DNA of 64,000 bases from Giardia intestinalis (Eukaryota): the NCBI GenBank assembly GCA_000002435.2, contig CM018790.1. The stretch is one strand, 5' to 3'. The translations under genes and the position numbers were made by a program. Positions 1,571-43,689 of this stretch are shown in pieces. Within the stretch, counting starts at the first letter, position 1. Every line of letters begins with the position of its first letter. The notes beneath the pieces were generated by a model. The model saw nothing but the letters and a program-made list of their open reading frames with translations, did no database searches and was not told where the DNA came from.

Positions 1571-3691
1571 ATGTCGAGCATCGAGCTTCCCGAAGGCTAC
1601 CGCTTCCAGACGACTTTGGCGGCAGGAGAGTACAGCATGCTCTTCCTGGCCATGGGAAACGACTACCAGGAGGTCGCTATCAAGAGCTTTGATTGCACGC
1701 AGATGGACGATGCACAAGTCTCGGAAATTCACCGCCAGGCCCTACTCCTGAAGTCCGTTAACCATCCGCTGGTACTCAAGGTATATGACGTCCAGATGAA
1801 CATTACGCGCACGCGCCTGCACGTGATCATGGAGCCCTTCTTCAAGACGCTTCAGAACCTCATCGACGAGTGTGAGAAGGCAGATCGCTCGCTCCTCAAC
1901 AACATCGTCTGCCAGGTGGCCTACCAGGTCATCAAGGGGCTCCACTATCTCTCCACCACCAACCATGTCGCGGTCAACGAGCAGGGACAGGAGTTCTCGC
2001 AGGACAAGATCTTCCACTCGTTTATCACACCGAACGACATTGTGTTCAACACCTCCGGAGTTGTGAAGCTTATGAACATCTTCCCCCTGGAGCATAGGAT
2101 GCTCTATGAAAAGGGCGACGCCAGCTTCCCGGGGCTCGCCTATGCGTCGCCTGAGTTTCTCAACAGGGAATACACCGAGTGCCCTGCCGATGTGTGGTCT
2201 GCGGGCGCGTGCATTTTCGCCATGGCTATGCGCAGGCCCCCGTTCAACTCTACCAACGTGGAGTCCCTAAGGGTGGAGGTCGAAGAAGGAAAGAAGGATG
2301 GCCTCGATATCAGCTTCAGCCGCGAGCTTGATGACATGCTCCAGCGCATGATGACGCCGGACCAGGGCTACAGGCCCACTGCCGGCGATCTCCTCAACGA
2401 CCCCTCAATCACCGAGGCGGCGTACGAGATCGAAGCGGGCGGCCTGCAAAACCCGTGGATGGCAATCGGCTTCTCCAGGCCGATCTCTCAGGCAGTGGCC
2501 CCTGTGTCCAACGACTCCCCGGTCCTCGCCCTGGATCCGAACAATGTGTACCCGATTGCCTTCGATGACAACAACCCATGGGAGAGGTACTGGCTTAACG
2601 CTCCTCGTCCAGATGCGACAGTCGACGCAGCCTCCTACACCAGGGGCACTATCGGCGAGGAAGTGGTTGCAAGGGTCCCGACACCACCGCCCGAGATGGA
2701 TATGTATGCCACGATGGATGATGCCTACAAGGGTGCCAACGATGAGTCCGCCTACTACGCCCCTGATAGCTATTATGGCAGTGCCCCTGCAGAGAGCGTC
2801 ATGGACGTCGCGCAAGTTGTGCGGGTGGAGACGCCTCCTCCAGAGCCTGATGCCTATGCTGACGCGGGCGCTCAGGGCAATGACTATAAGGTGGACGATG
2901 AGGCAGCGGCCTACGCACTCACCAGCTACTACGGTGATGCGCCTGCGGACAGCATCATGCTTACCGATGATGAGGTAGTCCACAGGATTCCCACACCACT
3001 GCCAGAAGGGGTGGCAGAGGTAGTTGTAAAGAGGAGCGCACCAGCCCCGGTCCCAACCCCAGCCCCGCTCATGGAAACGGCACCTGAGTCCAAGACTGTC
3101 ACTGCTCTTATGAACGCGGTTCGAACGGGCAAAAACGATGTTGTGCAGAGGCTCGTCGGAGAGCACTCCGGAGACATCGGATGGAAGACGCCCAACGAGA
3201 AGAAGACCGCCCTCATGGTCGCTGCGGATCTTGGGAACGCCGAGGCTGTCGAGTTGCTGGCGCCATGTGAGTGTGGTGAGGTAGACTCGGATGGCTGGCG
3301 AGCGATCGATTACGCCGCCCAAAACGGTAATGTCAGGGCCGTCAACGCTCTTCTTCAGTACGAGGGAGACATGCCTATCGTGCGCAAGGACGGATGCACG
3401 CCGCTCTTCCAGGCGGTGTTCTGGAACAAGCCGGACTGTGTGAGGGCACTCGCTCCTAAGTACGCCGGCGCAACGACGACAAGCCACTACTGGCAGGGGG
3501 AGGGCTTTACGGCCCTCATGGAGGCGGCTAAGTGCTGCCGCGTCGAGTGCGTTGAGATTCTGGCGCCCTATGAAGCGAAGATGACGGACAAAAAGGGTCA
3601 TACAGCACTCTACCACTGTGAGCACGCGTGGGACCATATTCTCGATGACGCCAAGAAGGAGGAATGCATCAGGATCCTCGAGAGGGCCTAG
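1571..3691 (+). CDS. NEK-like protein kinase-fold (predicted pseudokinase) fused to C-terminal ankyrin repeats
   Basis: The track ORF begins at TTG 1514; the first ATG is 1571 (MSSIELPEGYRF...) and has an A/T-rich leader. Kinase fold markers VAIK, ASPEF and DVWSAG are present. The catalytic loop reads HSFITPND rather than HRDLKPxN, and there is no DFG (LMNIFP). A Pro/Ala/Tyr-rich linker follows, then about 5 ankyrin repeats. Confidence 0.7.
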   Translation: MSSIELPEGYRFQTTLAAGEYSMLFLAMGNDYQEVAIKSFDCTQMDDAQVSEIHRQALLLKSVNHPLVLKVYDVQMNITRTRLHVIMEPFFKTLQNLIDECEKADRSLLNNIVCQVAYQVIKGLHYLSTTNHVAVNEQGQEFSQDKIFHSFITPNDIVFNTSGVVKLMNIFPLEHRMLYEKGDASFPGLAYASPEFLNREYTECPADVWSAGACIFAMAMRRPPFNSTNVESLRVEVEEGKKDGLDISFSRELDDMLQRMMTPDQGYRPTAGDLLNDPSITEAAYEIEAGGLQNPWMAIGFSRPISQAVAPVSNDSPVLALDPNNVYPIAFDDNNPWERYWLNAPRPDATVDAASYTRGTIGEEVVARVPTPPPEMDMYATMDDAYKGANDESAYYAPDSYYGSAPAESVMDVAQVVRVETPPPEPDAYADAGAQGNDYKVDDEAAAYALTSYYGDAPADSIMLTDDEVVHRIPTPLPEGVAEVVVKRSAPAPVPTPAPLMETAPESKTVTALMNAVRTGKNDVVQRLVGEHSGDIGWKTPNEKKTALMVAADLGNAEAVELLAPCECGEVDSDGWRAIDYAAQNGNVRAVNALLQYEGDMPIVRKDGCTPLFQAVFWNKPDCVRALAPKYAGATTTSHYWQGEGFTALMEAAKCCRVECVEILAPYEAKMTDKKGHTALYHCEHAWDHILDDAKKEECIRILERA

Positions 3692-3765
3692 GAGCTCTAG
3701 ACTCCCGGAGAGTAAAGCGCCTGCGTGGCTTTGTTAAAATTCACAAATTACAGAAAAAAGTGAGG

Positions 3766-4521
3766 ATGGACCCCATGGAGGTTGAGGTTATCCGTACGCC
3801 GTCCGACTCAGACATAGCTGGTTCCGGGGGGCCCGCGACTGCGGTGCCCATGAGCAGGGCCGCTCCAGCGCCCCAGGCCACAGGGGAAGATCCTCAGACG
3901 CTCCCGAGGCTGACCACGCTTGTCAACCCTGACGAAGGGGTGACGGAGCTCATGGTTGCTGCTCGCCGCGGAGACGAAGAGACCGTCATGGCACTCTTGG
4001 ACGAGCAGGCATGCCAGGTCGATGCACGAGGGCGTACAGCACTCATGTATGCCGCCGAGATGGGCAGATCATCCATTGTGGAGCTGCTTAAGGACCGCGA
4101 GGCAGGCATCCAGGACTCGTTTCTGTGGACGGCGCTCTTCTATGCGGCGCAAAACGGGCACCTCGTCTGCGTCTCCATGCTTGCACCTCTTGAAGCAAAG
4201 ATACAGCGCAAAGATGGCTGCACTGCCCTCTTCCTAGCAGTCTTTTGGAACCACATCGAGTGCGCCCGCATCCTCGCTCCTCTAGAGGCGGGGATCACAA
4301 CAAACTACAAACACTGGCAGGGCGGAGAGTACACGGCCCTCATGGAAGCAGCGAGGTGGGCCCGTTTGGAATGCATTGAACTTCTTGTCGAGCAGGAGCA
4401 CGGTATGAAGGACGCGTCTGGAAATAGGGCAATTGACTACGCCCGTGCTCCCTACGCACACGTCCCGGAAGATCGCAAAGAGCAGTCCATACAGCTTCTT
4501 GAGCAGTATGAGCGCGACTAG
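3766..4521 (+). CDS. Short ankyrin-repeat protein (Protein 21.1-like), a kinase-less paralogue of its neighbours
   Basis: ATG 3664 would overlap the upstream gene, so I chose ATG 3766 (MDPMEVEV...), which follows an A/T-rich tract. The ankyrin repeats and C-terminal module (FWN...HWQGGEYTALMEAARW...) are near-identical in pattern to the C-termini of genes 1571-3691, 4642-6189 and 6266-8599. Confidence 0.6.
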   Translation: MDPMEVEVIRTPSDSDIAGSGGPATAVPMSRAAPAPQATGEDPQTLPRLTTLVNPDEGVTELMVAARRGDEETVMALLDEQACQVDARGRTALMYAAEMGRSSIVELLKDREAGIQDSFLWTALFYAAQNGHLVCVSMLAPLEAKIQRKDGCTALFLAVFWNHIECARILAPLEAGITTNYKHWQGGEYTALMEAARWARLECIELLVEQEHGMKDASGNRAIDYARAPYAHVPEDRKEQSIQLLEQYERD

Positions 4522-4641
4522 ATCGCTGCCGGCGCATTCTCTAGCATCCCCTGCCGCTGAGTGAACATCTGTGACCACAGTAAAGCGAATTTAAAATGGA
4601 ATTTGGGGTTTTTGGTCAAACCGCTTAAAGCGGGCAATAAA

Positions 4642-6189
4642 ATGGACGGCCAGGCCTTTGCCATGGACTACCAGCCCGTTGCGGACATCTACTCCACCGG
4701 CGTGCACGAGATTGCCTCTGCACGCTCGACCAGGGATCCTAGCTCGAACATCGCTCTCTTCACCTGCTCCTATGGCGGGTTTGACGAGTCGGACCGAGCT
4801 ACCCTCAGGAGGCGCACGGGCGAGTACTGCGAGTTCAACAACTCGTCGACCGCTGTCCAGCCGGATCTTCTTAGCCCTTATCTGGCGCGTCTGTCCCACT
4901 ACTTCAACGACGATGCGTCTGCCCTCCTGACCATGGGTCTTCCTTACGGAGTTAACACCCTCTACGACGTGATGATGGCGAAGGCTCAGTCATACAGCAA
5001 CTTCACCGAGGAGGAGGTCTGGCGCGTGGTTGCGGCCCTCTGTGATGCCGCGCGCTTCATGCACAGCGAGGAGAAACCCGACACAGAACTGGAGGAGTTT
5101 GCGCACCTTGGCATCCACCCTGCCAACATCTTCCTGTACGCTGACGGCGCCCGTATCAGGCTTGGGTACCCGTACATCTGCCCCACAATGAGTTTCAAGA
5201 ACCCAGGCAATTACAGGGCCTTCCAGCAGCTCGGCGAGGCGCACTTCATGGCGCCGGAGTTCATCGAGGCTGGCGCCAAGGGCTCGTGTCCTTGTGACAT
5301 ATTCTCTATCGGTATGGTTGGGTATGCCATGATGACAAACTCGACTGCCTGGAGCGCGAGCAATATCAACGATCTGCAGGGAGAGGTGTACACTCGCGGG
5401 GCCATCAGCCTGCCATACGACGGCCGATACAGCCAGGACCTCGTTGATCTCATCAACTCTATGCTTTCCTTCGACTCGTCTGCCCGCCCCAAGGCAGAGC
5501 AGCTCTGTGCAAGCGGAAAGATTGCGCAGTGCATCGCGGAGAACGGAGACGCTCCCACGATGGCTCCTCCGAAGATGACCCGCGATATCGTCCAGCCACC
5601 CAGCGGGCTCACAGACCTCATGATCGCTGCCAGAGACGGCGACCTCAGTGGCGTCAGGAACAACCTCCACCAGGCAGGGTCCACAGACCAGTGCGGCCGC
5701 ACCGCTCTCATGTACGCGGCAGAGCACGGGTACGCCGATTGTGTCCGCGCGATCGTCTCTGACGCAATGGGCCACGGCGAGGTTCGCCTCCAGGACAAGT
5801 ACATGTGGACTGCAACCATGTATGCTGCCCAGAACGGACACGCCGATTGCGTCTCGCTTCTCCACGAGGAGTTCGGGATGCAGCGTCGCGACGGTGCCAC
5901 GGCGCTCTTCACTGCCGTCTTCTGGAACCGTTGCGAGTGCGTCAAGGTGCTCGCCCCGACTGAGGCCATCATCTCCACCAACGACAGGTACTGGCAGGGC
6001 GAGCGCTACACGGCTGCAATGGAGGCCGCAAGGTGGGGACGTCCCGAGTGTCTCCAGGAGCTTCTTGGGTACATCGACAAGTACACTACCGATAATAATG
6101 GGAACGATGTGGCGTACTATGCCATGCACCCATGGGAGCACGTGTCTGCAGATAAGAGCAGCAGAGTGCGTGAGGTCCTGAACCTGTAA
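4642..6189 (+). CDS. NEK-like degenerate kinase domain (pseudokinase) plus C-terminal ankyrin repeats
   Basis: The track start 4561 is GTG; the first ATG is 4642, preceded by an A/T-rich leader. Kinase-like remnants are HLGIHPANIF (catalytic loop with D replaced by G), FMAPEF (APE) and DIFSIGMVGY (DxWSxG). There is no VAIK lysine and no DFG. The C-terminal ankyrin module matches those of the neighbouring genes. Confidence 0.65.
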   Translation: MDGQAFAMDYQPVADIYSTGVHEIASARSTRDPSSNIALFTCSYGGFDESDRATLRRRTGEYCEFNNSSTAVQPDLLSPYLARLSHYFNDDASALLTMGLPYGVNTLYDVMMAKAQSYSNFTEEEVWRVVAALCDAARFMHSEEKPDTELEEFAHLGIHPANIFLYADGARIRLGYPYICPTMSFKNPGNYRAFQQLGEAHFMAPEFIEAGAKGSCPCDIFSIGMVGYAMMTNSTAWSASNINDLQGEVYTRGAISLPYDGRYSQDLVDLINSMLSFDSSARPKAEQLCASGKIAQCIAENGDAPTMAPPKMTRDIVQPPSGLTDLMIAARDGDLSGVRNNLHQAGSTDQCGRTALMYAAEHGYADCVRAIVSDAMGHGEVRLQDKYMWTATMYAAQNGHADCVSLLHEEFGMQRRDGATALFTAVFWNRCECVKVLAPTEAIISTNDRYWQGERYTAAMEAARWGRPECLQELLGYIDKYTTDNNGNDVAYYAMHPWEHVSADKSSRVREVLNL

Positions 6190-6203
6190 CGTGTCGACTC
6201 GTT

Positions 6204-6210
6204 AGTAAAT
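6204..6210 (+). promoter_or_regulatory. AGTAAAT polyadenylation signal (AGTRAAY) for gene 4642-6189
   Basis: 15 nt after the TAA stop. Confidence 0.45.
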
Positions 6211-6265
6211 CAATCTAAGCTTTACTGCGCAGTTAAAAAAGGCGGACTTTTTTAAAAAGAAATTA

Positions 6266-8599
6266 ATGGCTGCGGTTCAACTCCCTGCCCCCTACGTCTG
6301 GACAGCAGATATATGTAGGACGACCCTTGGATGCATTTGTCAGGCAATGGACACGAGTAACAACACCGAGGTGACGGTCAAGGTTGTGAATTACTCACAA
6401 CTCTCCCAGGAGGAGGCGAACGCCCTGGCCCACGAGGCGCGCGCCCTTTTATACCTCAATCACGATCACGTTGTCAAGACATATAACACAATCATAGCTC
6501 CCGAGACTTACACAATATACATTATCATGGAGCCGTGTCTAGGAACTTTGGGGACGGCAATACAGGTCATGAGCGCATACGGCCAGCAGATTCCCGAGGA
6601 GCACATCTGGTACATCGCTGCCGAGGTCGGGTCTGCTCTTAAGTATCTCCACGAGCCACATGAGAAGATGATGATTGACTGGTACTCTGCTGAAATCCCT
6701 ATAGGGCCTGTCGTTCATGGGTATCTCACGCCTTCCGACATCTTTATTTCTCGCGATGGAAAGTGCAAGGTTGGTGGAATAAGCCCGACGCAGTCGGCAT
6801 GGGAGATCCGCTCGGGCAACGCTGACCTGGGCAGACTTTTCCTCCAAGCCCCAGAGATCTTAGATATGCAGCCGAATATCACAGAGAAGGTCGATATCTG
6901 GTCGTTGGGGACGACTCTCTTCTTTATCGCTGCCTTTCAATCAGTTTGGATCTCCAGTGACTACGCTAGTATAGTCGCTGAGATAAAACACGGGAAGATC
7001 CAGCGCCTCCCCGATAGGTATTCCTGCGAGCTTGACGGCTTTATAGCTCGGTGTTTGCAGGTGGATCCGATGTACCGTCCATCCATTTTGGAGCTGCTTT
7101 TGGAGCCCCAGATCAACGACGTCATGCGTTCAGTGTGCGAGGGGTCTGTTCCGTCTATGCGCTATCTCCTTGGGCTATCTGAGGAGTCCGAGTCTCAGCC
7201 GCCCTCTATGCAGCCTGAGGAGCCAGCGGCACCTGCTGCGCCAATCCAAGAGCAGCCCGAAGAGCAACCTCAGAGAGACCCGATGCAGGTGGAGCGCATC
7301 TCTACACCCATGTCTGGGTCGCTCACCGCTGAGCCCAGGGCCCCTGAAAATCTTGAGCTGCCTCCTTTGCCGACAGACACTCCGACAGTTTCTACTCTTG
7401 AACCTTCCGAAATGGCTGTTTATGCACCTTCCGAGACTCGTACATTTGCCACTGAGCCGGCGACGTCTGACTTTGTAGATGCCGCTGAAAAGATTGTTAG
7501 CCTCATCGCTAAAGAGGCGTGTGCTCCCTCTGTTCCTGCGGAGGACATACGCGAGCCCGTCGACATGAATATCCTCCCAGCAAGCGTCACAGCGTCTATC
7601 CAGCCCGTTCCCGACCCCACTCCAGATGTTATAGCAGAGAAGATTGTCTCTGAAATCATTACTGCCGCCGATGATGATCTTTACAATAACACTGTGAGCG
7701 TTGTTGAAAGGCTGGAGGAGCCGGAGGACTCTGACGTGGGTGTAGTCTGTACAGCACTGCAGGATCCATCTCTCGTTGAGTCTGTGAAGAGACTTGAAGA
7801 GCCTGCTGTTGAGTACGATGTTCCTGTTGAGCCGGTCTACGCCACCGCTCCAAGCGCCTTTGCCAAGCCAGACACAGGCGTGGCCGAGGTCCTGAAGGAG
7901 GAGGAACCTGCCGTTGAAGCCAACACGTATGAGGCAGAGCCCGTTCTTGCTGCACCCATCCAGCCTGACGTGTATGCCAATAAGACCTTTGACTCCTCAG
8001 TTGTGCGCCCTGTAGAGGGTGTAACCCAGCTAATGCTTTGCGTTGAGAGAGGCGATCTTGAGGGTGCCAAGTATTATATCAATGAGGCAAGGTCCTCTGA
8101 CTCCTTCGGAAAGACTGCTCTGATGCGTGCCGCTGAACTTGGCAATTCGGAGCTAGTCGAGCTTCTTGTCGGATACGAGGCTTGCCTGCAGGACATTGAC
8201 GGATGGACTGCGCTCATGTTTGCCGTCCACAGCCGTAATACAGAGTGTGTTCGTCTCCTTGAGCCTCGTGAGCACGGGATGAGGCTCGCCAACGGACAAA
8301 CTGCACTGATGATGGCCTCCTTCTGGAACAATTCCGATGCCGTCTCCATACTAGCTTCGAGGGAATCGCGCGCGAGAACGACGGAGAGGTACTTTGAAGG
8401 CGAGGGATTCACAGCGCTCATGGAGGCTGCAAGGTGGGGACGCCACGATATTGTGAAGCTGCTTCTTCCGCACGAGGGCGACATGCGTGATTCCAGCGGG
8501 AAGACCGCACTTGATCACGCCCGCATTTCTGCCCATTCAGTTAGTCAGGTTGACAGAGACGAGTGCATTGCCATTCTCAGTGGTTCATCCGCCTGTTGA
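6266..8599 (+). CDS. NEK-like pseudokinase, then an acidic Pro/Glu-rich linker, then C-terminal ankyrin repeats
   Basis: ATG 6266 follows ttttttaaaaagaaattaATG. The kinase fold shows VTVKVV (β3 Lys), APEIL and DIWSLG. The catalytic loop is VHGYLTPSD with no Asp, and DFG is replaced by KVGGIS. A long acidic, low-complexity linker leads into ankyrin repeats. An AGTGAAT polyA signal lies 3 nt after the stop. Confidence 0.7.
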   Translation: MAAVQLPAPYVWTADICRTTLGCICQAMDTSNNTEVTVKVVNYSQLSQEEANALAHEARALLYLNHDHVVKTYNTIIAPETYTIYIIMEPCLGTLGTAIQVMSAYGQQIPEEHIWYIAAEVGSALKYLHEPHEKMMIDWYSAEIPIGPVVHGYLTPSDIFISRDGKCKVGGISPTQSAWEIRSGNADLGRLFLQAPEILDMQPNITEKVDIWSLGTTLFFIAAFQSVWISSDYASIVAEIKHGKIQRLPDRYSCELDGFIARCLQVDPMYRPSILELLLEPQINDVMRSVCEGSVPSMRYLLGLSEESESQPPSMQPEEPAAPAAPIQEQPEEQPQRDPMQVERISTPMSGSLTAEPRAPENLELPPLPTDTPTVSTLEPSEMAVYAPSETRTFATEPATSDFVDAAEKIVSLIAKEACAPSVPAEDIREPVDMNILPASVTASIQPVPDPTPDVIAEKIVSEIITAADDDLYNNTVSVVERLEEPEDSDVGVVCTALQDPSLVESVKRLEEPAVEYDVPVEPVYATAPSAFAKPDTGVAEVLKEEEPAVEANTYEAEPVLAAPIQPDVYANKTFDSSVVRPVEGVTQLMLCVERGDLEGAKYYINEARSSDSFGKTALMRAAELGNSELVELLVGYEACLQDIDGWTALMFAVHSRNTECVRLLEPREHGMRLANGQTALMMASFWNNSDAVSILASRESRARTTERYFEGEGFTALMEAARWGRHDIVKLLLPHEGDMRDSSGKTALDHARISAHSVSQVDRDECIAILSGSSAC

Positions 8600-8644: not shown

Positions 8645-11335
8645 ATGGCGGCAGGGTTGAACGGCGAGGAGCGCGGCGACACCGCTCTGATTAGAGCAGC
8701 AAAGGCTAACAATCTCAGAGCAGTCATGGCCACCTTTCCAGAGGATGCGTGTAAAACTGACCACACAGGCCGCACGGCCCTCAGCTGGGCTACCGAGCGG
8801 GGATATGTTAATATTGTCCGGTACTTGATACACAAGGAGGCGAGGATTGTTGACAGGAAGGGTGTCACTGCGCTAATGATCGCCGTAAAGCGCCAGAACA
8901 TCTCCTGCGTCATGTCTCTTTACGCATACGAGTCCGGGTTCCAGGATAACCACGGCTGGTCTGCGCTTCACTGGGCAGTTTTCTATGGCTGCGCAAACAT
9001 TGTCCAGTACTTGGCTCCGTTGGAGGCTGGGCTCATCACTAACAATGGAACCACCGCCTTGATGTGCGCTGCCCAAAAGGGGTATGCAAACATCATCCCC
9101 TATCTTCTAGCCGCTGGAAGGGAGCTTAGAATGGTTGATAATTTGAAGAAGAGCGCACTCATCTATGCAGTAGAAGCAGGGCACGAGGATATAGTGCAGC
9201 TCTTAGCTGAGAAGGAGGCGGGAATAACTGACATGCTCGGACGATCGGCTCTCATGTATGCTGTGATAAATAAGAGGCCGGCGTGTGTCTCTATTCTTGC
9301 TCCGTATGAAGCGGGCATAGTTAGTAGTGAGGGGATGACTGCGCTTATGTATGCCGTGCAACAGCATGAGTGGCACATTGCGATGATTTTGGCCAAGCAA
9401 AAGGCAGAGCTAGGGAAGCAGGCTGCAAAGGAAGTTACTGCGCTTATGCTCCTGATGGACGCGAAGGATCCTCCGTCCGAAGTCGTGCTGGCACTTGGAG
9501 ACCGTCTGATCCCTTATGAAGCTAAGCTATCCGACTCTGCGGGCAATACAGCCCTTATGCGCGCAGCAATGCGGGGGGACATTAAGATGGTTGAAAGACT
9601 TGTCACCCACGAGGCGGGAATGCAGTCGTTGGCGGGGAAGACAGCTATGATGCTAGCCAGCCACGCTGGGCATGATGAGATTGTAAGATTACTTTCACCC
9701 ATAGAGAAGGGTCTCGTTGACGCCATGGGGCGGACTGCATTAATGTACGCCACAAGGGCAAACAATGATAACGTGATACGATACCTCATTCCGTTTGAAA
9801 GCAGAATGACTGATTTCTATGGCAAGACGGCGTTGATGTGCGCTGCAAAGAATAATTATATGCCGATTCTTAAGTTTCTTGCGTCAAAGGAGTGCAAGAT
9901 TAAAGATCACAAGGGCCGGACGGCTCTGATGCGGGCAGCCGCTAGCGGGCACATAGAGTCAGTAGCATTCTTGGCTCGGTATGAATCGCAACTTCAGTCG
10001 GAGAGTGGTTTAACTGCCTTGATGTTTGCTGCCGTCAATGGCCATTCAACCGTGGCGCGAGTTCTCGCCAAAACAGAGGCCGGGATGCGCGATTCTACAG
10101 GACGGACTGCCCTTCTCCTTTCGCTGGTTAACAATCATGAAAATGTCGCCCGTGCGCTTCTTGTATTCGAGCATCAACTTGCTGACGATCAAAAGCGGAC
10201 CGCCCTGATGTATTCTGCCCAAACAGCATTCGACTCGGTGACTCGGTCACTTATAGCCCTGGATAATCTGGCTAAAAGACAAGATGATGTAGGTCGCACG
10301 GCACTAATGTATGCTGTCACTTCTTCGCAGAGAAATGCTATCAGAGCGCTGCTTCCCAAGGAAAATTGCATGGTTGACAAGAACGGACGGACTGCACTCA
10401 TGTATGCCGCGCGTGCGTGCCTGTCTCCGGGGGTCCCGGGGCTCATCGAGAGTGAAGCAGGAATACACGATAACGACGGTCTAACGGCCCTCATGTATTG
10501 CTGTCTCAGCAAAAACTACTCGCTAGCGGATCTTTTGTTATCAACGGAGGTCTGCATGCGTGACAAGCGGGGACAGACAGCGCTCATGTATGCTGCCAAG
10601 GAGGGTTGCAAGGAGCTCGTCAATAAGTTGCTTCCACACGAAGCGGACATGCGTGACCATAGCGGGAAGACCTCATTGATCTATGCTGTTGAAAACGGGC
10701 ACTCTCATCTGGTATCGTCCCTGGCGTCGGAGAACAGGCTTTCCGATAAGCATCTTCAAACGCCATATGACTACGCAATGCGTCTGCGCTGCACAAAGTC
10801 TGTACAGTCTCTTGTCAGCATCTTAACAGATACGTCCACTCTCGTGCTAAGTGCCAGTGTTTGTTTACAATTCATCCGAAACCTTTCTCCGATTGTTTCG
10901 TATATGCTCTGGAAGAGTAAGAACACTCTCTATGCGATTCACGCACACACCTTATTGGATACCCTGATGTCATTTTTGTTTGATGATCTAGACATTAGTC
11001 TTCTGCGTTCTGAGGAAGAACAACGATGTGGTGAGAGCCTCATGCATCTCTGCACCATCAACGATAGTTTCATGGCCTCGTCGTCTTCGTTCTGGCTCCG
11101 CGGAGAAGCTCGGCGTCGGTACATGCACCGGACGCGGACTATGGAGATCTCTGATGCTTCACATGACTCCGTCTGCGCAGTGTGCTTAGACAACCATCCC
11201 AATGTCGTCTTTCTGCCATGCAGACACATGGTTGTCTGCAGTGCTTGCTTGACGTCTATGGAGCGTCACTGTCCTTATTGTCGAAAATATGTCTGTCGTC
11301 ACTTCACTATAAACGAAGAAGACATACTCTGCTAG
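8645..11335 (+). CDS. Large ankyrin-repeat protein (about 24 repeats, Protein 21.1-like) with a C-terminal C3HC4 RING finger
   Basis: Long array of GxTALMxAA ankyrin units. C-terminal CAVCLDNHPNVVFLPCRHMVVCSACLTSMERHCPYCRKYV fits C-x2-C-x11-C-x-H-x3-C-x2-C-x6-C-x2-C, the same RING type as gene 10-1461. Start context is ccttttaaaaATG. Confidence 0.75.
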   Translation: MAAGLNGEERGDTALIRAAKANNLRAVMATFPEDACKTDHTGRTALSWATERGYVNIVRYLIHKEARIVDRKGVTALMIAVKRQNISCVMSLYAYESGFQDNHGWSALHWAVFYGCANIVQYLAPLEAGLITNNGTTALMCAAQKGYANIIPYLLAAGRELRMVDNLKKSALIYAVEAGHEDIVQLLAEKEAGITDMLGRSALMYAVINKRPACVSILAPYEAGIVSSEGMTALMYAVQQHEWHIAMILAKQKAELGKQAAKEVTALMLLMDAKDPPSEVVLALGDRLIPYEAKLSDSAGNTALMRAAMRGDIKMVERLVTHEAGMQSLAGKTAMMLASHAGHDEIVRLLSPIEKGLVDAMGRTALMYATRANNDNVIRYLIPFESRMTDFYGKTALMCAAKNNYMPILKFLASKECKIKDHKGRTALMRAAASGHIESVAFLARYESQLQSESGLTALMFAAVNGHSTVARVLAKTEAGMRDSTGRTALLLSLVNNHENVARALLVFEHQLADDQKRTALMYSAQTAFDSVTRSLIALDNLAKRQDDVGRTALMYAVTSSQRNAIRALLPKENCMVDKNGRTALMYAARACLSPGVPGLIESEAGIHDNDGLTALMYCCLSKNYSLADLLLSTEVCMRDKRGQTALMYAAKEGCKELVNKLLPHEADMRDHSGKTSLIYAVENGHSHLVSSLASENRLSDKHLQTPYDYAMRLRCTKSVQSLVSILTDTSTLVLSASVCLQFIRNLSPIVSYMLWKSKNTLYAIHAHTLLDTLMSFLFDDLDISLLRSEEEQRCGESLMHLCTINDSFMASSSSFWLRGEARRRYMHRTRTMEISDASHDSVCAVCLDNHPNVVFLPCRHMVVCSACLTSMERHCPYCRKYVCRHFTINEEDILC

Positions 11336-38962: not shown

Positions 38963-40264
38963 ATGGAGGATCAGGAGAAATTAGACGCTGAGAGCGAGTT
39001 GCTCAGCCAGCCTCTGTCGGATGACTCTGAGTATAAGAGCACCCAGTCTCCCATCGCCGTAGATACCCACACGATGTCAAGCGCCCTGATGCTTGCCTTG
39101 GAGCCGTACCAATATGGGACAGACTTTATTCTGAATAGGAATAGCATCCCGCGCCTTCAGAAGGAGCTGGACAAACTCATTGGCCGGACAGCTTCAAAGC
39201 CGCGACTTAGCCTTCGCATGGGTCAGAAGAAGTACATGGACTTGGAGCTTATGAGCTCTCTGGTTTTGGACTCGGTTCAGGCTGTCGCGTCTGACAGCTT
39301 CTGGGAGTGCTTCGAACGACCATACTCGCGGCCGTGGAATTGGACTTTCCCTCTTTGGGTTACCTGGGCAACTGGCTGCATCATCCGCTATTGTATTCTT
39401 TTACCTATCCGGGCTTTTCTCTTTCTGTTTATGCTTGTATTCTGCCTCTTCGGGACTCTTATGACGTCTGTTTTGGTTCCATCGAAGCGTTTGCAGACAC
39501 ATATTCAACGGCGCATACTTAAGATAGGCTATCACCTTACCCTCTTGTCTATAGGCGCTGTTGTTCTCATCCATGGATCTATCCCGCACACCCAATCAGG
39601 GAGAATCTACGTTGCTAATCACACGACTATAATGGATGCAATAATCTTGAGCTCAATCAAGCAGTTTGCCATTGTCGGACAAAAGTATAGTGGCCTCCTG
39701 GGCATTATTGAAGAACGTATCCTAGGATGCTTGGACCCTGTATGGTTCAATAGGTCTGACAGAACCGAGAGAACTGAGGCAGCGACAAAGATCAAGAATC
39801 GCATTTACGACGAAGGAGCTAAGGCGCCTCTGCTTTTGTTCCCAGAGGGAGTACTTGTCAATAACCGCTTCATAATTATGTTCAAAAAGGGAGCGTTCGA
39901 GCTTGGTGCAGAGATTTGCCCAATAGCAATCAAGTATAACGAGACACTGAGCTCTCATGCATACTGGTCTTCTCGGGATGTTTCTTTCTATAGATATCTG
40001 TTTGACTTAATGACGAATTGGATATTGATTGTTGATGTTTGGTTTCTTCCCCCTACGTCTATTCAGGACGGAGAGACGCCAGAAGAATTTGCGGAAAGAG
40101 TCAAACTGAGTATTGCTCGAGCAGCCCGACTGATACCGCGACCGTGGGATGGATATCTGAAATATACGAAAGCCACAAAGTCTATGCACAGAAACAGAAA
40201 GACAGAGCTTTTGCACCAAATCGGATTTTCTCCAAAGGAGATTGATGAAATGGTTTCTAGTTAA
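38963..40264 (+). CDS. GPAT3/4 (AGPAT6)-like glycerol-3-phosphate/lysophospholipid acyltransferase
   Basis: Acyltransferase motif I HTTIMDAI (HxxxxD) and motif III LLLFPEGVLVNNRFIIMFKKGAFELG, which is close to GPAT4 IFPEGTCINNTSVMMFKKGSFEIG. There are N-terminal hydrophobic segments. The track start 38951 is TTG; the first ATG is 38963. Confidence 0.75.
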   Translation: MEDQEKLDAESELLSQPLSDDSEYKSTQSPIAVDTHTMSSALMLALEPYQYGTDFILNRNSIPRLQKELDKLIGRTASKPRLSLRMGQKKYMDLELMSSLVLDSVQAVASDSFWECFERPYSRPWNWTFPLWVTWATGCIIRYCILLPIRAFLFLFMLVFCLFGTLMTSVLVPSKRLQTHIQRRILKIGYHLTLLSIGAVVLIHGSIPHTQSGRIYVANHTTIMDAIILSSIKQFAIVGQKYSGLLGIIEERILGCLDPVWFNRSDRTERTEAATKIKNRIYDEGAKAPLLLFPEGVLVNNRFIIMFKKGAFELGAEICPIAIKYNETLSSHAYWSSRDVSFYRYLFDLMTNWILIVDVWFLPPTSIQDGETPEEFAERVKLSIARAARLIPRPWDGYLKYTKATKSMHRNRKTELLHQIGFSPKEIDEMVSS

Positions 40265-40559
40265 TGATTGATGCTATGCTCCATCTTCTCCTCAGGACGA
40301 AGACGAGACAGGGACGTCTGTACCTGAGAACTCGCTATCTGCGCCACCAGAGTCTGTTGCTTGCAGCATTGTCGAGCCAAGGAACCTACCATCCAGCCTT
40401 TCCTTGGTTCCGCCCTTCGCGCCCACTCCTAGCGCTGCTCCGAATGTTTATCCGATCCAGAGCATCTATCCAGCCCCTGGTGCCGTCCCTTATCTCCAGG
40501 CGTCGGGGGTGCTCAGTCTACAGCCGACGCCCTACCCCTTCGGCTTCGGGGTGCCGCTG

Positions 40560-41620
40560 ACATACGTCCCTGTTCTGATACAATCGCCAGGACATACTGG
40601 CGGATGGCCCGTGGGCACGGGTGACGGTCCGCTCGGAAGGCCGACCAGGCAGCCCTGAGCCCCTGCTGCACCGCCTCGCACCAGAGGAGGAATCACGGTC
40701 TACAGCCAGAAGGGCAAAAGAGGCGCGTGGGTGGAGGCGCTCTCCCGATTTTCTTTTCGAGCTCGAACAGAACAGCCGTAGAGACTGTACGAAAACATCC
40801 TACAGTACCATCGAGGCCTCGCACGGAGGGGTTCTGAATGGACGAACGCCTAGGCTGGGAGTCATTCTAGAGCCGATTCTGGCCGAGGAAGGGGCTCCCC
40901 GCTTACGGGGGCATGGCGGCTCCGCTGGCCACGTACGGCGACAGTTGCCGGGTCAGCGGCCCAGCCAAACCAGCGATGCCGCTGCGGAAGCCACCCCCGG
41001 CCCTGTCCCACACAGTCGATGCCCTTGGCAGCCGCCTGCTCCAGTCCAGATCCACCCCACCGGCTGCGTGCCAGGGCCAGACATCTAGCAACCACAGAGA
41101 CACGTCCACCGAGGCCGACACTGGCTGCACACACCGACCGGCGCGTCGATTCGAGGCACAGACGCGCATTTTTTCTTTTGTCCGGCGAGATTCCGGGCTG
41201 CACTGGCTGCACGGACGCACGCAGCTGTTCCGCGCCGGCCGGGGCCTTCCGAGGCAGGCCTTGCACGAGAACGCGACGTCTCGCGCAGGTCCACCGGCCC
41301 TCTGGCGGGCGCACGGCCGCGGAGTGTCCGTCCCTGTTGCGATGCAGTGCACACGGCTTTGTAGCACGTGCAGAGACCCAGTTGCCCTGCCCTGGCTGTG
41401 GCTCCTGCGCGCTGCGGCCAGCCACTGAGACCAGCCCCCATTGGAGCAGGCCACGGCAGGGCCCGCCGGACAAGCTCTCTACATGAGCACATGCTGCACA
41501 GCTTAGAGGCGAACGCTGCACAGCCCGGCTAGTGCTCGCTGCCCCTATCGCTGCGTGGTACCTCTTCGTGAGACGACTGCGCAAGGCCACCCGATCGAGG
41601 GCTACGGCAGGACGCAAAGA
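40560..41620. other. GC-rich (about 70% GC) CpG-rich island with no coherent ORF
   Basis: Sampled 60-nt lines here give 72-73% GC, against about 49% for the rest of the window. At least six overlapping stop-free frames run on both strands. All of them translate to Arg/Pro/Ala-rich nonsense with no domain. Confidence 0.5.
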
Positions 41621-42429
41621 GTGGACTAGTTCAGGGCGTTGTGCATCTAGTAGGCCTGTGAGTACGCCTAGGTCGTGTATAGCTATTACATCAACATACT
41701 CATGTAGGTGGATACAACTGATTGCTCCGAATGGACTGGTTCTTGATGGCGTGGGCTGATGGGGAAGGACGCATTTGTATTACAGGTCCAAGCATAGAGG
41801 GTGGCAGCAGGAAACGAAAAGTTGCTTGATTGCTGGTGTGCAGGTAAATGCAGCTATTTGCACTTGACTTGCCTAGTGTGCCGGATAGACTGCACGCAGG
41901 GAGCCACTAGGGTCGCCAGCTATGAAGCGAGGGAGGATGTCGTGAGAAAGGCTGTATGCCACTTGGAAGATAGTGTTCTCCAGCGCGTTATGCAGCACGC
42001 GGCAGATGCTGTACAAGAATGGGACAAGGATGCCACATATCCATTGTTGTGACAGAGGTGACAGGGCATCTAGCAGGCCCTATGTTGGGGTCACGCCTGC
42101 ACCACCACAGCAGCGCATACTAGGGACGATGGTATCCTGTCCAGGTGGGCATCGCCTATACATCTATGTTGCAAATGAATCGTTATCAAAGCCAGAGTTG
42201 ATCGTACCATGAGCCCATTTGTCATACACTGAAGCTTTTTTGGTCTCCATTCCCAAAGGACTGAGCAAACTAAGGCACGGCTTAAGCGTCTATCTCTTCT
42301 TCTCTATAATCAGAAGCAGAATGCGAAGTGTGTCTACGTTATTCGTATTCCTTCCATGATAATAGTATAACGCTCAGGAATACAATCAGGAAACTTTCTC
42401 AATACAAGTCTCTATGCACTGCCGGCGCA

Positions 42430-43689
42430 ATGTTTGCTAAGCTTATCTTCACAAGCCTCGTTCTGCAGCTGGCAGAGGCGACACGGCCAGCGGTCAAAGA
42501 GCAATCCGGCGCCTGCACCTCTCCAGAGAACGCCGGGTGTGCCGCGTGCAACCCGAATAACGGAGATGAGCTCTGCCTCTCGTGCACAAACGCGCAGGAG
42601 TTCATCCAGCTCAACAAGAAGGGGTGCACGGCCGCCTGCGCCGGGGATGGAGTGATTGGAGACGCTGCTGTCGACCCGAAGGTCTGCAAGTGTGACGGAG
42701 ACAATGGCTACACGCTCCAGGGCGACGCGTGCGTCAAGAGACAGGCCAACGAGTGCCAGACAGAGAACTGCCAGGAATGCACTGGCAAAGGCACAGCCAA
42801 CGAGGTCTGTACAAAGTGTACTTCTACTCATTACTTGACACCAACAAACCAGTGCGTACCTGACTGCACAGTTATCAAGGGCTACTACGGAGATACTAAC
42901 GAAGGGAAGTGTAAGCCATGTAGCCCTGAGTGCGCTGAGTGCGTTGGGCCGGCCAACAATCAGTGCAGTGCCTGTCCTGCTGGCAAGAAACTGACATATA
43001 CAGATGACAGCTATCCTAATAACGGAGGCGCCTGCGGGGATGCGTGCAAAGTGTCTGCAGACGGCGCTGGCTGTGAGACATGCGGGGCTCAGATAGGAGG
43101 AACTGCATACTGCTCAAAGTGCAAGACCTCCACTCAGGCCCCCTTGAACGGCGACTGTGCGGCCAATACGCGAACACAATTTTGCACTACAGTGAGCAAT
43201 GGAGTGTGCACTCAATGCGCTGCTAACTACTTCCTCAAGGACGGCGGCTGCTATCAAACAGATAGACAGCCTGGTAAACAAGTGTGTAGTAGTGCACAGG
43301 GAGGAACATGTACAAAATGTGCCAACGGACTACAGGTACAAAGTGGAGCCTGTGGAAACTGTCATTCTACTTGTGCTACGTGCAGTGCTCCCAGTATTGC
43401 AAGCTCGTGTAAGACCTGTGCCACTGGGTATTACAAGGAAAACGGTGACGATACCACTGATGGGTTATGCAAGAAGTGCTCAGAGAAGATCTCTGGATGC
43501 AAGCAATGTGTGTCATCATCTGGCAGTTCAGTCATATGTTTAGAATCAGAAGTAGGCACTGGTGGAAGCGTCAACAAGAGCGGTCTCTCCACTGGCGCCA
43601 TAGCGGGCATTGCTGTGGCTGCTGTTATTGTCATTGGTGGTCTCGTCGGCTTCCTCTGCTGGTGGTTCCTCTGCCGCGGGAAGGCGTAG
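42430..43689 (+). CDS. Variant-specific surface protein (VSP)
   Basis: An N-terminal signal peptide (MFAKLIFTSLVLQLAEA) is followed by many CXXC motifs and a GGCY motif (KDGGCYQ). The C-terminus has a TM helix and the invariant ...FLCRGKA tail. The track start 42328 is GTG and I reject it. Confidence 0.85.
   Translation: MFAKLIFTSLVLQLAEATRPAVKEQSGACTSPENAGCAACNPNNGDELCLSCTNAQEFIQLNKKGCTAACAGDGVIGDAAVDPKVCKCDGDNGYTLQGDACVKRQANECQTENCQECTGKGTANEVCTKCTSTHYLTPTNQCVPDCTVIKGYYGDTNEGKCKPCSPECAECVGPANNQCSACPAGKKLTYTDDSYPNNGGACGDACKVSADGAGCETCGAQIGGTAYCSKCKTSTQAPLNGDCAANTRTQFCTTVSNGVCTQCAANYFLKDGGCYQTDRQPGKQVCSSAQGGTCTKCANGLQVQSGACGNCHSTCATCSAPSIASSCKTCATGYYKENGDDTTDGLCKKCSEKISGCKQCVSSSGSSVICLESEVGTGGSVNKSGLSTGAIAGIAVAAVIVIGGLVGFLCWWFLCRGKA

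Follow-up and report, generated by a model that had tools for sequence, protein, structure and literature searches.

Do the three NEK-type kinase genes that lie close together on one strand of a Giardia intestinalis contig encode working enzymes, relics on their way to becoming pseudogenes, or proteins retained for something other than catalysis? The genes are located in a stretch of 64,000 nucleotides (contig CM018790.1, GenBank assembly GCA_000002435.2; here called the window), for which a first-pass annotation made from the sequence alone had claimed that all three kinase-like domains are catalytically dead. The sequence is that of G. intestinalis WB (ATCC 50803), and the three open reading frames (ORFs) are exact matches to annotated WB proteins, each named 'Kinase, NEK'. 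Gene 1 (1571-3691, + strand, 706 aa) is GL50803_15411 (GK292; XP_001707032.1; A8BH24), gene 2 (4642-6189, + strand, 515 aa) is GL50803_15409 (GK175; XP_001707030.1; A8BH19), and gene 3 (6266-8599, + strand, 777 aa) is GL50803_11390 (GK209; XP_001707029.1; A8BH18), the GL50803 and GK names being assigned by searching with peptides in the supplementary data of Manning et al. (2011, Genome Biol 12:R66, PMC3218828). All three proteins begin with a pseudokinase domain (~aa 1-290 in genes 1 and 3; degenerate and spanning ~aa 1-300 in gene 2) and end in an ankyrin module (~aa 511-706, of the TALM type, in gene 1; ~aa 323-515 in gene 2; ~aa 586-777 in gene 3). The two parts are connected by a disordered linker in gene 1 (~aa 291-510) and by a long acidic and proline-rich linker in gene 3.

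The analysis supports the view that all three domains are catalytically dead by canonical criteria. It likewise supports that the dead domains are under stronger-than-average purifying selection, being maintained and not decaying. We consider it very probable that the three genes encode non-catalytic pseudokinase-ankyrin proteins with a scaffold or adaptor role, belonging to the Giardia-specific 'Nek / Protein 21.1' expansion.

Individually, the three genes are already known as dead Neks or pseudokinases, and nothing different in kind is reported here. In Additional file 1 of Manning et al. (2011), the entry for both 15411 and 11390 is 'Dead Nek - missing D166, D184', that for 15409 reads 'Dead Nek - missing K72, D166, D184', and the loops are the same for strains GS and P15 in that study's alignment. 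According to the same source, 139 of the 195 WB Neks (71%) are without at least one of K72, D166, and D184, an N-terminal kinase domain followed by TALM-ankyrin repeats is the majority architecture (133/198 Neks), and Neks and 21.1 proteins were proposed to form one family. The first-pass annotation's remark on Giardia's unusually high share of inactive NEKs is in line with published counts. Its emphasis on three dead domains in a row has to be reduced: all three are dead, but an ankyrin-only gene intervenes, and at a frequency of 139/195 the chance of 3/3 Neks being dead is 0.36, which is not above chance. The three proteins are also listed as 'Int-ncPsKs' (interacting non-core pseudokinases, i.e., pseudokinases with co-occurring interaction domains), and all of them belong to a set of 31 non-core kinases whose expression differs between trophozoite and cyst (Lam et al. 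2025, PMC12538575).

What is added here is a domain-resolved analysis of selection, a four-gene array with one C-terminal ankyrin module, its synteny with Giardia muris together with the same losses in that species, and an orthologue of 15409 in P15. As a discovery this carries little weight, most Giardia Neks being known as pseudokinases since 2010-2011 and these three being annotated individually. The increment lies in the quantified above-average constraint on dead domains and in an array and losses that appear older than the split of G. intestinalis and G. muris; in addition, the array provides a concrete local link between a kinase-less Protein 21.1 gene and its pseudokinase neighbours. 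It opens no new question and can be considered as useful background for work on the roles of Giardia pseudokinases, e.g., of Gl15411 at clathrin/AP2 assemblies.

Catalytic residues and kinase fold

Key positions were read from HMMER alignments to solved kinases and from a MAFFT alignment, the latter with orthologues from three further Giardia sources and active Neks, one of them an active Giardia Nek carrying the same insert before the catalytic loop. For the definition of a pseudokinase, the absence of any one of K72 (the ATP-anchoring Lys), D166 (the catalytic base), and D184 (the metal-binding Asp of DFG) suffices. In gene 1, the catalytic-loop equivalent HSFITPND (2015-2038, + strand) aligns to HRDLKPAN of NEK2, with D166 replaced by F, K168 by T, and N171 by D. 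The DFG-region equivalent KLMNIF (2066-2083, + strand) aligns to KLGDFG, with D184 replaced by N and the following F and G by I and F. The loss of HRDLKPxN and DFG claimed for this gene was confirmed by HMMER, MAFFT, and the annotation of Manning et al. (2011). K72 is kept in gene 1 (VAIK), and the alphaC Glu is replaced by Gln. Separately, we observed an apparent reciprocal exchange of two metal-binding residues in gene 1 (N171 to D, D184 to N), which is kept in G. muris (SPQD / ITNLF) and is accompanied by the retained K72.

The catalytic-loop equivalent of gene 2, HLGIHPAN (5104-5127, + strand), aligns to HRDLKPEN of a CDPK and has G at D166. Its DFG-region equivalent LGYPY (5161-5175, + strand) has Y at D184, and F occupies the position of K72 within IALFTC (4750-4767, + strand), in agreement with the claimed loss of the catalytic loop, DFG, and the beta3 Lys. 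The alphaC Glu is not retained, and the MAFFT alignment contains no Asp at any position of gene 2 from beta8 to APE. In gene 3, VHGYLTPSD (6713-6739, + strand) aligns to the NEK2 motif with D166 replaced by Y and N171 by D, as the first-pass annotation had read it. Its assignment of the DFG position to G-G-I needs correction, however, since within KVGGIS (6767-6784, + strand) D184 corresponds to G and the DFG equivalent is G-I-S. Both K72 and the alphaC Glu are kept in gene 3.

The Gly-rich loops are degenerate in all three genes (AAGEYS, STGVHE, and CRTTLG). Fold markers had been described as retained in each domain; this holds for the D of DxWSxG, R280, and an APE-type motif, but gene 1 has SPE and gene 2 reads DIFSIG, having lost the Trp of DxWSxG. 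Likewise, the claim of a different catalytic-loop substitution in each gene is correct for position 166 (F, G, and Y) and overstated for genes 1 and 3, the loops of which are very similar and have the common derived form H-x-[FY]-[IL]-T-P-x-D. Inserts of ~15-25 residues precede the catalytic loop in genes 1 and 3, and one is present in the alphaC region of gene 2. Alignment against active NEKs placed no Asp at D166 or D184, by which a mis-registration is excluded as far as computation allows. Because D166 and D184 are absent, in gene 2 together with K72, and all Gly-rich loops are degenerate, none of the three proteins could transfer phosphate by the canonical mechanism.

Despite these losses of catalytic residues, the domains are recognizable as protein kinases by Pfam (PF00069 Pkinase), with 76.8 bits for gene 1, 60.4 for gene 2, and 85.6 for gene 3 at a gathering cut-off of 31.7. 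The N-lobe of gene 2 is very divergent, the Pfam match beginning only at profile position 57. Pfam Ank families are found C-terminal to Pkinase in all three proteins, and the alignment shows repeats starting with TALM / T.LM. AlphaFold2 models were built from an alignment of 64 sequences for the kinase domains of genes 1 and 2 and reached a predicted local distance difference test score (pLDDT) of 93.9 and a predicted template modelling score (pTM) of 0.92 for gene 1, and 83.7 and 0.86, respectively, for gene 2. Human NEK2 and NEK7 are the best-matching PDB structures for the two models, NEK2 ranking first for each, with target-normalised TM-scores of the top matches of 0.72-0.87. On sequence level, NEK2 is the top PDB match for genes 1 and 3 (E=8e-24 for gene 3). 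The top matches of gene 2 are CDPKs with NEK7 close behind, and the margins over MARK, MST, and CDPK kinases are small. In this respect it should be mentioned that the Nek label for this Giardia expansion has been questioned and its members called 'ncPKs' (Lam et al. 2025).

Purifying selection, age of the array, and the common ankyrin module

The ratio of nonsynonymous to synonymous substitution rates (dN/dS, omega) was calculated per domain by the Nei-Gojobori method with bootstrap intervals, comparing WB with P15, an assemblage E strain of G. intestinalis, on its syntenic contig (ACVC01000037.1, locus L001). For the kinase domains, omega was 0.005 in gene 1 (95% interval 0-0.014), corresponding to 2 amino-acid changes versus 73 synonymous-only codons in 290, 0.097 in gene 2 (0.054-0.151), and 0.036 in gene 3 (0.015-0.063), at a synonymous divergence (dS) of 0.43-0.60. 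The linkers showed values of 0.10-0.23 and the ankyrin modules of genes 1 and 2 a value of 0.09; in genes 1 and 3 the kinase domain is the most constrained part of the protein. The 166 ankyrin codons of the ankyrin-only gene are 100% amino-acid identical between WB and P15 at a dS of 0.46. Since the genome-wide WB-P15 values are 0.44 for dS and 0.15 for dN/dS (PMC3091692), the dead domains, ranging from 0.005 to 0.097, are more constrained than the average. Intact ORFs are present in WB, P15, and other Giardia assemblies as well as in G. muris. The first-pass annotation had expected maintenance as pseudokinases rather than decay and had named dN/dS on the kinase fold as a check. Purifying selection was found in all three domains, and the expectation is borne out by these ratios, by the intact ORFs, and by proteins detected experimentally.

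P15 contains an orthologue of 15409 (EFO65199.1; L001 13060-14607, ACVC01000037.1), which is 92% identical; Manning et al. (2011) give the orthology of 15409 as 1:0:2, without a P15 row for GK175. An exhaustive HMMER search with the kinase domain of gene 1 retrieved two matches below E=1e-30, namely a Giardia sequence of 88% identity and TNJ29101.1 of G. muris with 34% identity. A word-index protein search with the same domain gave 0 matches at E<=1e-5 and missed the query protein itself, which is no evidence of absence as the index is not exhaustive. At the G. muris locus (L002), order and orientation are kept as Rer1, Ank-RING, gene 1, a 216-aa ankyrin gene, gene 2, and gene 3. The orthologue of gene 1 (L002 10001-12127) reads HSLLSPQD / ITNLF, that of gene 2 HLAVHPKN / LGFPY with L at K72, and that of gene 3 HNYLTVSD / IGGIC, and the ankyrin-only counterpart (L002 12136-12786) is syntenic. 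The change of N171 to D is kept in G. muris for genes 1 and 3, as is that of D184 to N for gene 1. Position 166 varies among the gene 2 orthologues, being G in WB, S in P15 (HLS), and A in G. muris.

In a neighbour-joining tree of kinase domains, which included only five other Giardia Neks, each gene formed a clade with its own G. muris orthologue (bootstrap 0.97-1.0), genes 1 and 3 were sisters at a bootstrap of 0.55, and gene 2 fell outside that pair. The kinase domains of the three genes are 24-27% identical to each other, and among 1.84 billion representatives, the best Giardia paralogue match to the gene 1 kinase domain is the gene 3 family. As the G. muris orthologues lack the same residues and each gene groups with its own orthologue, both the duplication and the loss of the catalytic residues should be older than the split of G. 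intestinalis and G. muris. The first-pass annotation had left a choice between duplication after loss and independent losses. The comparison answers this in part, as it places both events before this split and pairs genes 1 and 3 at a bootstrap of only 0.55. The common derived loop of these two genes would favour a loss of activity before they separated.

The ankyrin-only gene of the array (3766-4521, + strand, 251 aa) has only Ank matches in Pfam, without a kinase domain, and is located between genes 1 and 2, so that the kinase genes are not contiguous. Its C-terminal ankyrin module is the same as that of the three pseudokinase genes, being 44-48% identical to genes 1 and 2 and 39% to gene 3 (39-48% overall among the four modules). 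An atypical ankyrin repeat within the module carries the signature [FL]W[ND]-x(20-32)-[YH][WFP][QE]G-x2-[FY]TA-x-MEAA (FWN...YWQGE.FTALMEAA). It occurs exactly four times in the window, once per array gene (3419, 4243, 5920, and 8321, + strand), with four further occurrences in the syntenic genes of G. muris (L002 11840, 12499, 13977, and 16439). Because all four array genes and their syntenic counterparts in G. muris have the C-terminal module and its signature in common, the comparison supports the reading of the four as an old tandem family, one member of which would be without the kinase domain. A word-index protein search with the ankyrin-only gene gave only nine matches and no array paralogue, the index again being not exhaustive and the zero no evidence of absence.

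Probable scaffold function and its alternatives

From the combination of a maintained fold and lost catalytic residues we infer a scaffold mechanism. A folded NEK-like domain without the catalytic base and the metal-binding Asp, in gene 2 also without the ATP-anchoring Lys, would be held by purifying selection as a rigid interaction surface. Together with the C-terminal TALM-ankyrin module and linker motifs, this pseudokinase surface would place partners at particular sites of the cell, as may be the case at the peripheral vacuoles, where Gl15411 is a peripheral associate of clathrin/AP2 assemblies. Localisation, partners, and expression are known from the literature. Gl15411 was described as a predicted inactive NEK that is peripheral to clathrin assemblies via the two large AP2 subunits (alpha/beta) (Zumthor et al. 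2016), and it is part of the PXD3 interactome (Cernikova et al. 2020). Orf_15409 is the only inactive Nek localised by Manning et al. (2011), being cytoplasmic and partially shifting to the plasma membrane upon deletion of one ankyrin repeat, so that its location depends on the ankyrin repeats. This protein is also induced early in encystation and was recovered as a SUMO substrate by mass spectrometry (MS) and HA-tagging, and 11390-GFP is found at a distinct trophozoite structure. The SAGE (serial gene-expression analysis) values in Additional file 1 of Manning et al. (2011) were not used, as the columns are out of register (beside 11390 stand the values given in the main text for ORF 95593).

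Several points weigh against a purely non-catalytic scaffold. Some kinases (WNK, CASK, and Haspin) achieve activity in other ways although canonical residues are missing. The designation of the three domains as dead relies on sequence criteria, no in vitro kinase or nucleotide-binding assay for any of them having been found in the literature searched. K72 is kept in genes 1 and 3, and the conserved pair of N171 to D and D184 to N in gene 1 could in principle hold a metal-nucleotide. In addition, direct support for scaffolding exists only for Gl15411 (by co-immunoprecipitation), and its association was called peripheral by the authors (Zumthor et al. 2016).

The main rival to the scaffold reading builds on these points and postulates a cryptic or non-canonical enzyme. 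Mg-ATP binding and phosphotransfer, or another nucleotide-dependent reaction, would be achieved with relocated residues, or the domain would serve as a nucleotide-binding conformational switch, with the Asp at the N171 position of genes 1 and 3 and the Asn at D184 of gene 1 as candidate residues. The metal-nucleotide pocket of gene 1 might survive without a catalytic base, the very low omega of this domain also fits a constrained pocket, and the exchanged residues are among those kept in G. muris. Gene 3 retains both K72 and the alphaC Glu and gene 1 retains K72, and according to Manning et al. (2011) some of the divergent pseudokinases 'might have cryptic active sites'. We nevertheless consider such an enzyme improbable: position 166 is never acidic (F/L, G/S/A, Y) and even varies among the gene 2 orthologues, the Gly-rich loops are degenerate throughout, gene 2 has neither K72 nor any Asp between beta8 and APE, and no experimental activity is reported in the literature searched. 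A further reading is compatible with scaffolding and extends it to the locus, taking the four same-strand genes as one ancient, co-conserved adaptor module for the endocytic or cortical machinery. The ankyrin cap would dock, the linker motifs of 15411 would bind the AP2 appendage or be phospho-regulated, and the pocket of 15411 would act as a nucleotide switch; we regard this proposal as tentative and rather unlikely in this specific form.

That the genes are relics of tandem duplication drifting toward pseudogenes, with the remaining motifs as leftovers, could be suspected from the rampant duplication and pseudogenisation in the Giardia Nek subfamily GL4 (Manning et al. 2011) and from the very divergent N-lobe of gene 2. 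Such decay is highly improbable, as ORFs and synteny are kept across WB, P15, further assemblies, and G. muris, the folds of genes 1 and 2 are predicted with confidence, and the proteins were detected experimentally by MS and tagging; a dN/dS of 0.005-0.10, which is far under 1 and also under the genomic average, is counted together with the synteny as refuting it. Only a minimal probability is likewise left for an alignment artefact, in which an insertion would shift the register and hide a true catalytic Asp. That genes 1 and 3 have inserts ahead of the catalytic loop and gene 2 has one in the alphaC region makes this a legitimate concern, but four independent routes agree, namely HMMER to NEK2/CDPK, MAFFT, Manning's curated alignment, and the AlphaFold2 models superposed on NEK2. 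The invariant His of HRD, the loop Pro, and the APE, DxWSxG, and R280 landmarks fix the register, and the active Giardia Nek P0060, having the same insert before the loop, reads HRDIKPAN / KLADF. The only Asp residues between beta8 and APE sit 13-17 residues past the DFG position, that of gene 3 not being kept in G. muris.

The preferred scaffold reading can be compared with known systems. Human NEK2 and NEK7 are alike in being the best PDB matches by sequence (genes 1 and 3) and by structure (genes 1 and 2) and in their N-terminal kinase domain. The Giardia domains are, however, only 20-24% identical to them, lack the HRD Asp, the DFG Asp, and the Gly-rich loop, are followed by ankyrin repeats in place of coiled-coil or RCC1 regions, and come without evidence of a mitotic or ciliary kinase function. 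With the Protein 21.1 and ankyrin-repeat proteins of Giardia (ARP-1, ARP-2) they have TALM-ankyrin repeats in common, and to this type belong the ankyrin-only gene and the two Ank-RING genes on either side of the array. In contrast to the array genes 1 to 3, 21.1 proteins have no kinase-like domain, yet the kinase-less gene of the array has a specific C-terminal module in common with its pseudokinase neighbours. Scaffolding pseudokinases elsewhere (ILK, STRAD, KSR, and Trib) use a folded kinase domain without catalytic residues as an interaction platform, and ILK also has ankyrin repeats. Homology to them does not go beyond the eukaryotic protein kinase (ePK) fold, and the Giardia domain order is the reverse of that in ILK.

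Linker motifs, flanking genes, and base composition

The linker of gene 1 contains short conserved motifs between 2549 and 2998 (+ strand), namely YPIAFDDNNPW (2549-2581) and three V-x-R-x-x-T-P copies (2663-2686, 2816-2836, and 2975-2998). In the G. muris orthologue, YPIxFD[DE]xNPW and the three copies, as V-x-R-[IVL]-x-T-P, are kept, the rest of the gene 1 linker being divergent and disordered. These motifs may be docking or phosphorylation motifs. A single V-x-R-[IVL]-x-T-P copy was observed in gene 3 (7289-7309, + strand), and a variant, V-E-V-I-R-T-P, in the N-terminus of the ankyrin-only gene (3781-3801, + strand).

Based on Pfam, the array is flanked by two genes combining ankyrin repeats with a RING domain, one upstream (10-1461, + strand; zf-C3HC4_3; cut by the window start) and one downstream (8645-11335, + strand; 896 aa). 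Together with these Ank-RING (C3HC4) genes, the array forms six consecutive TALM-ankyrin genes on one strand. The C-terminal signature of the array is not present in the downstream Ank-RING gene. For the upstream Ank-RING gene, synteny extends to both P15 and G. muris; gene 3 of G. muris is followed by a SET-domain gene and not by an Ank-RING gene. Among the ORFs of at least 300 aa elsewhere in the window, no further kinase genes were found.

In genes 1 and 2, the G+C content of the linker and ankyrin parts (2000-6000) reaches up to 0.59, compared with 0.46-0.51 in most of the window. Long antisense ORFs at 2405-3637, 4990-6141, and 5211-5981 were taken as spurious by-products of the high G+C in the linker and ankyrin regions. 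A second G+C peak is located at 40001-42000, just upstream of a VSP gene (42328-43689).

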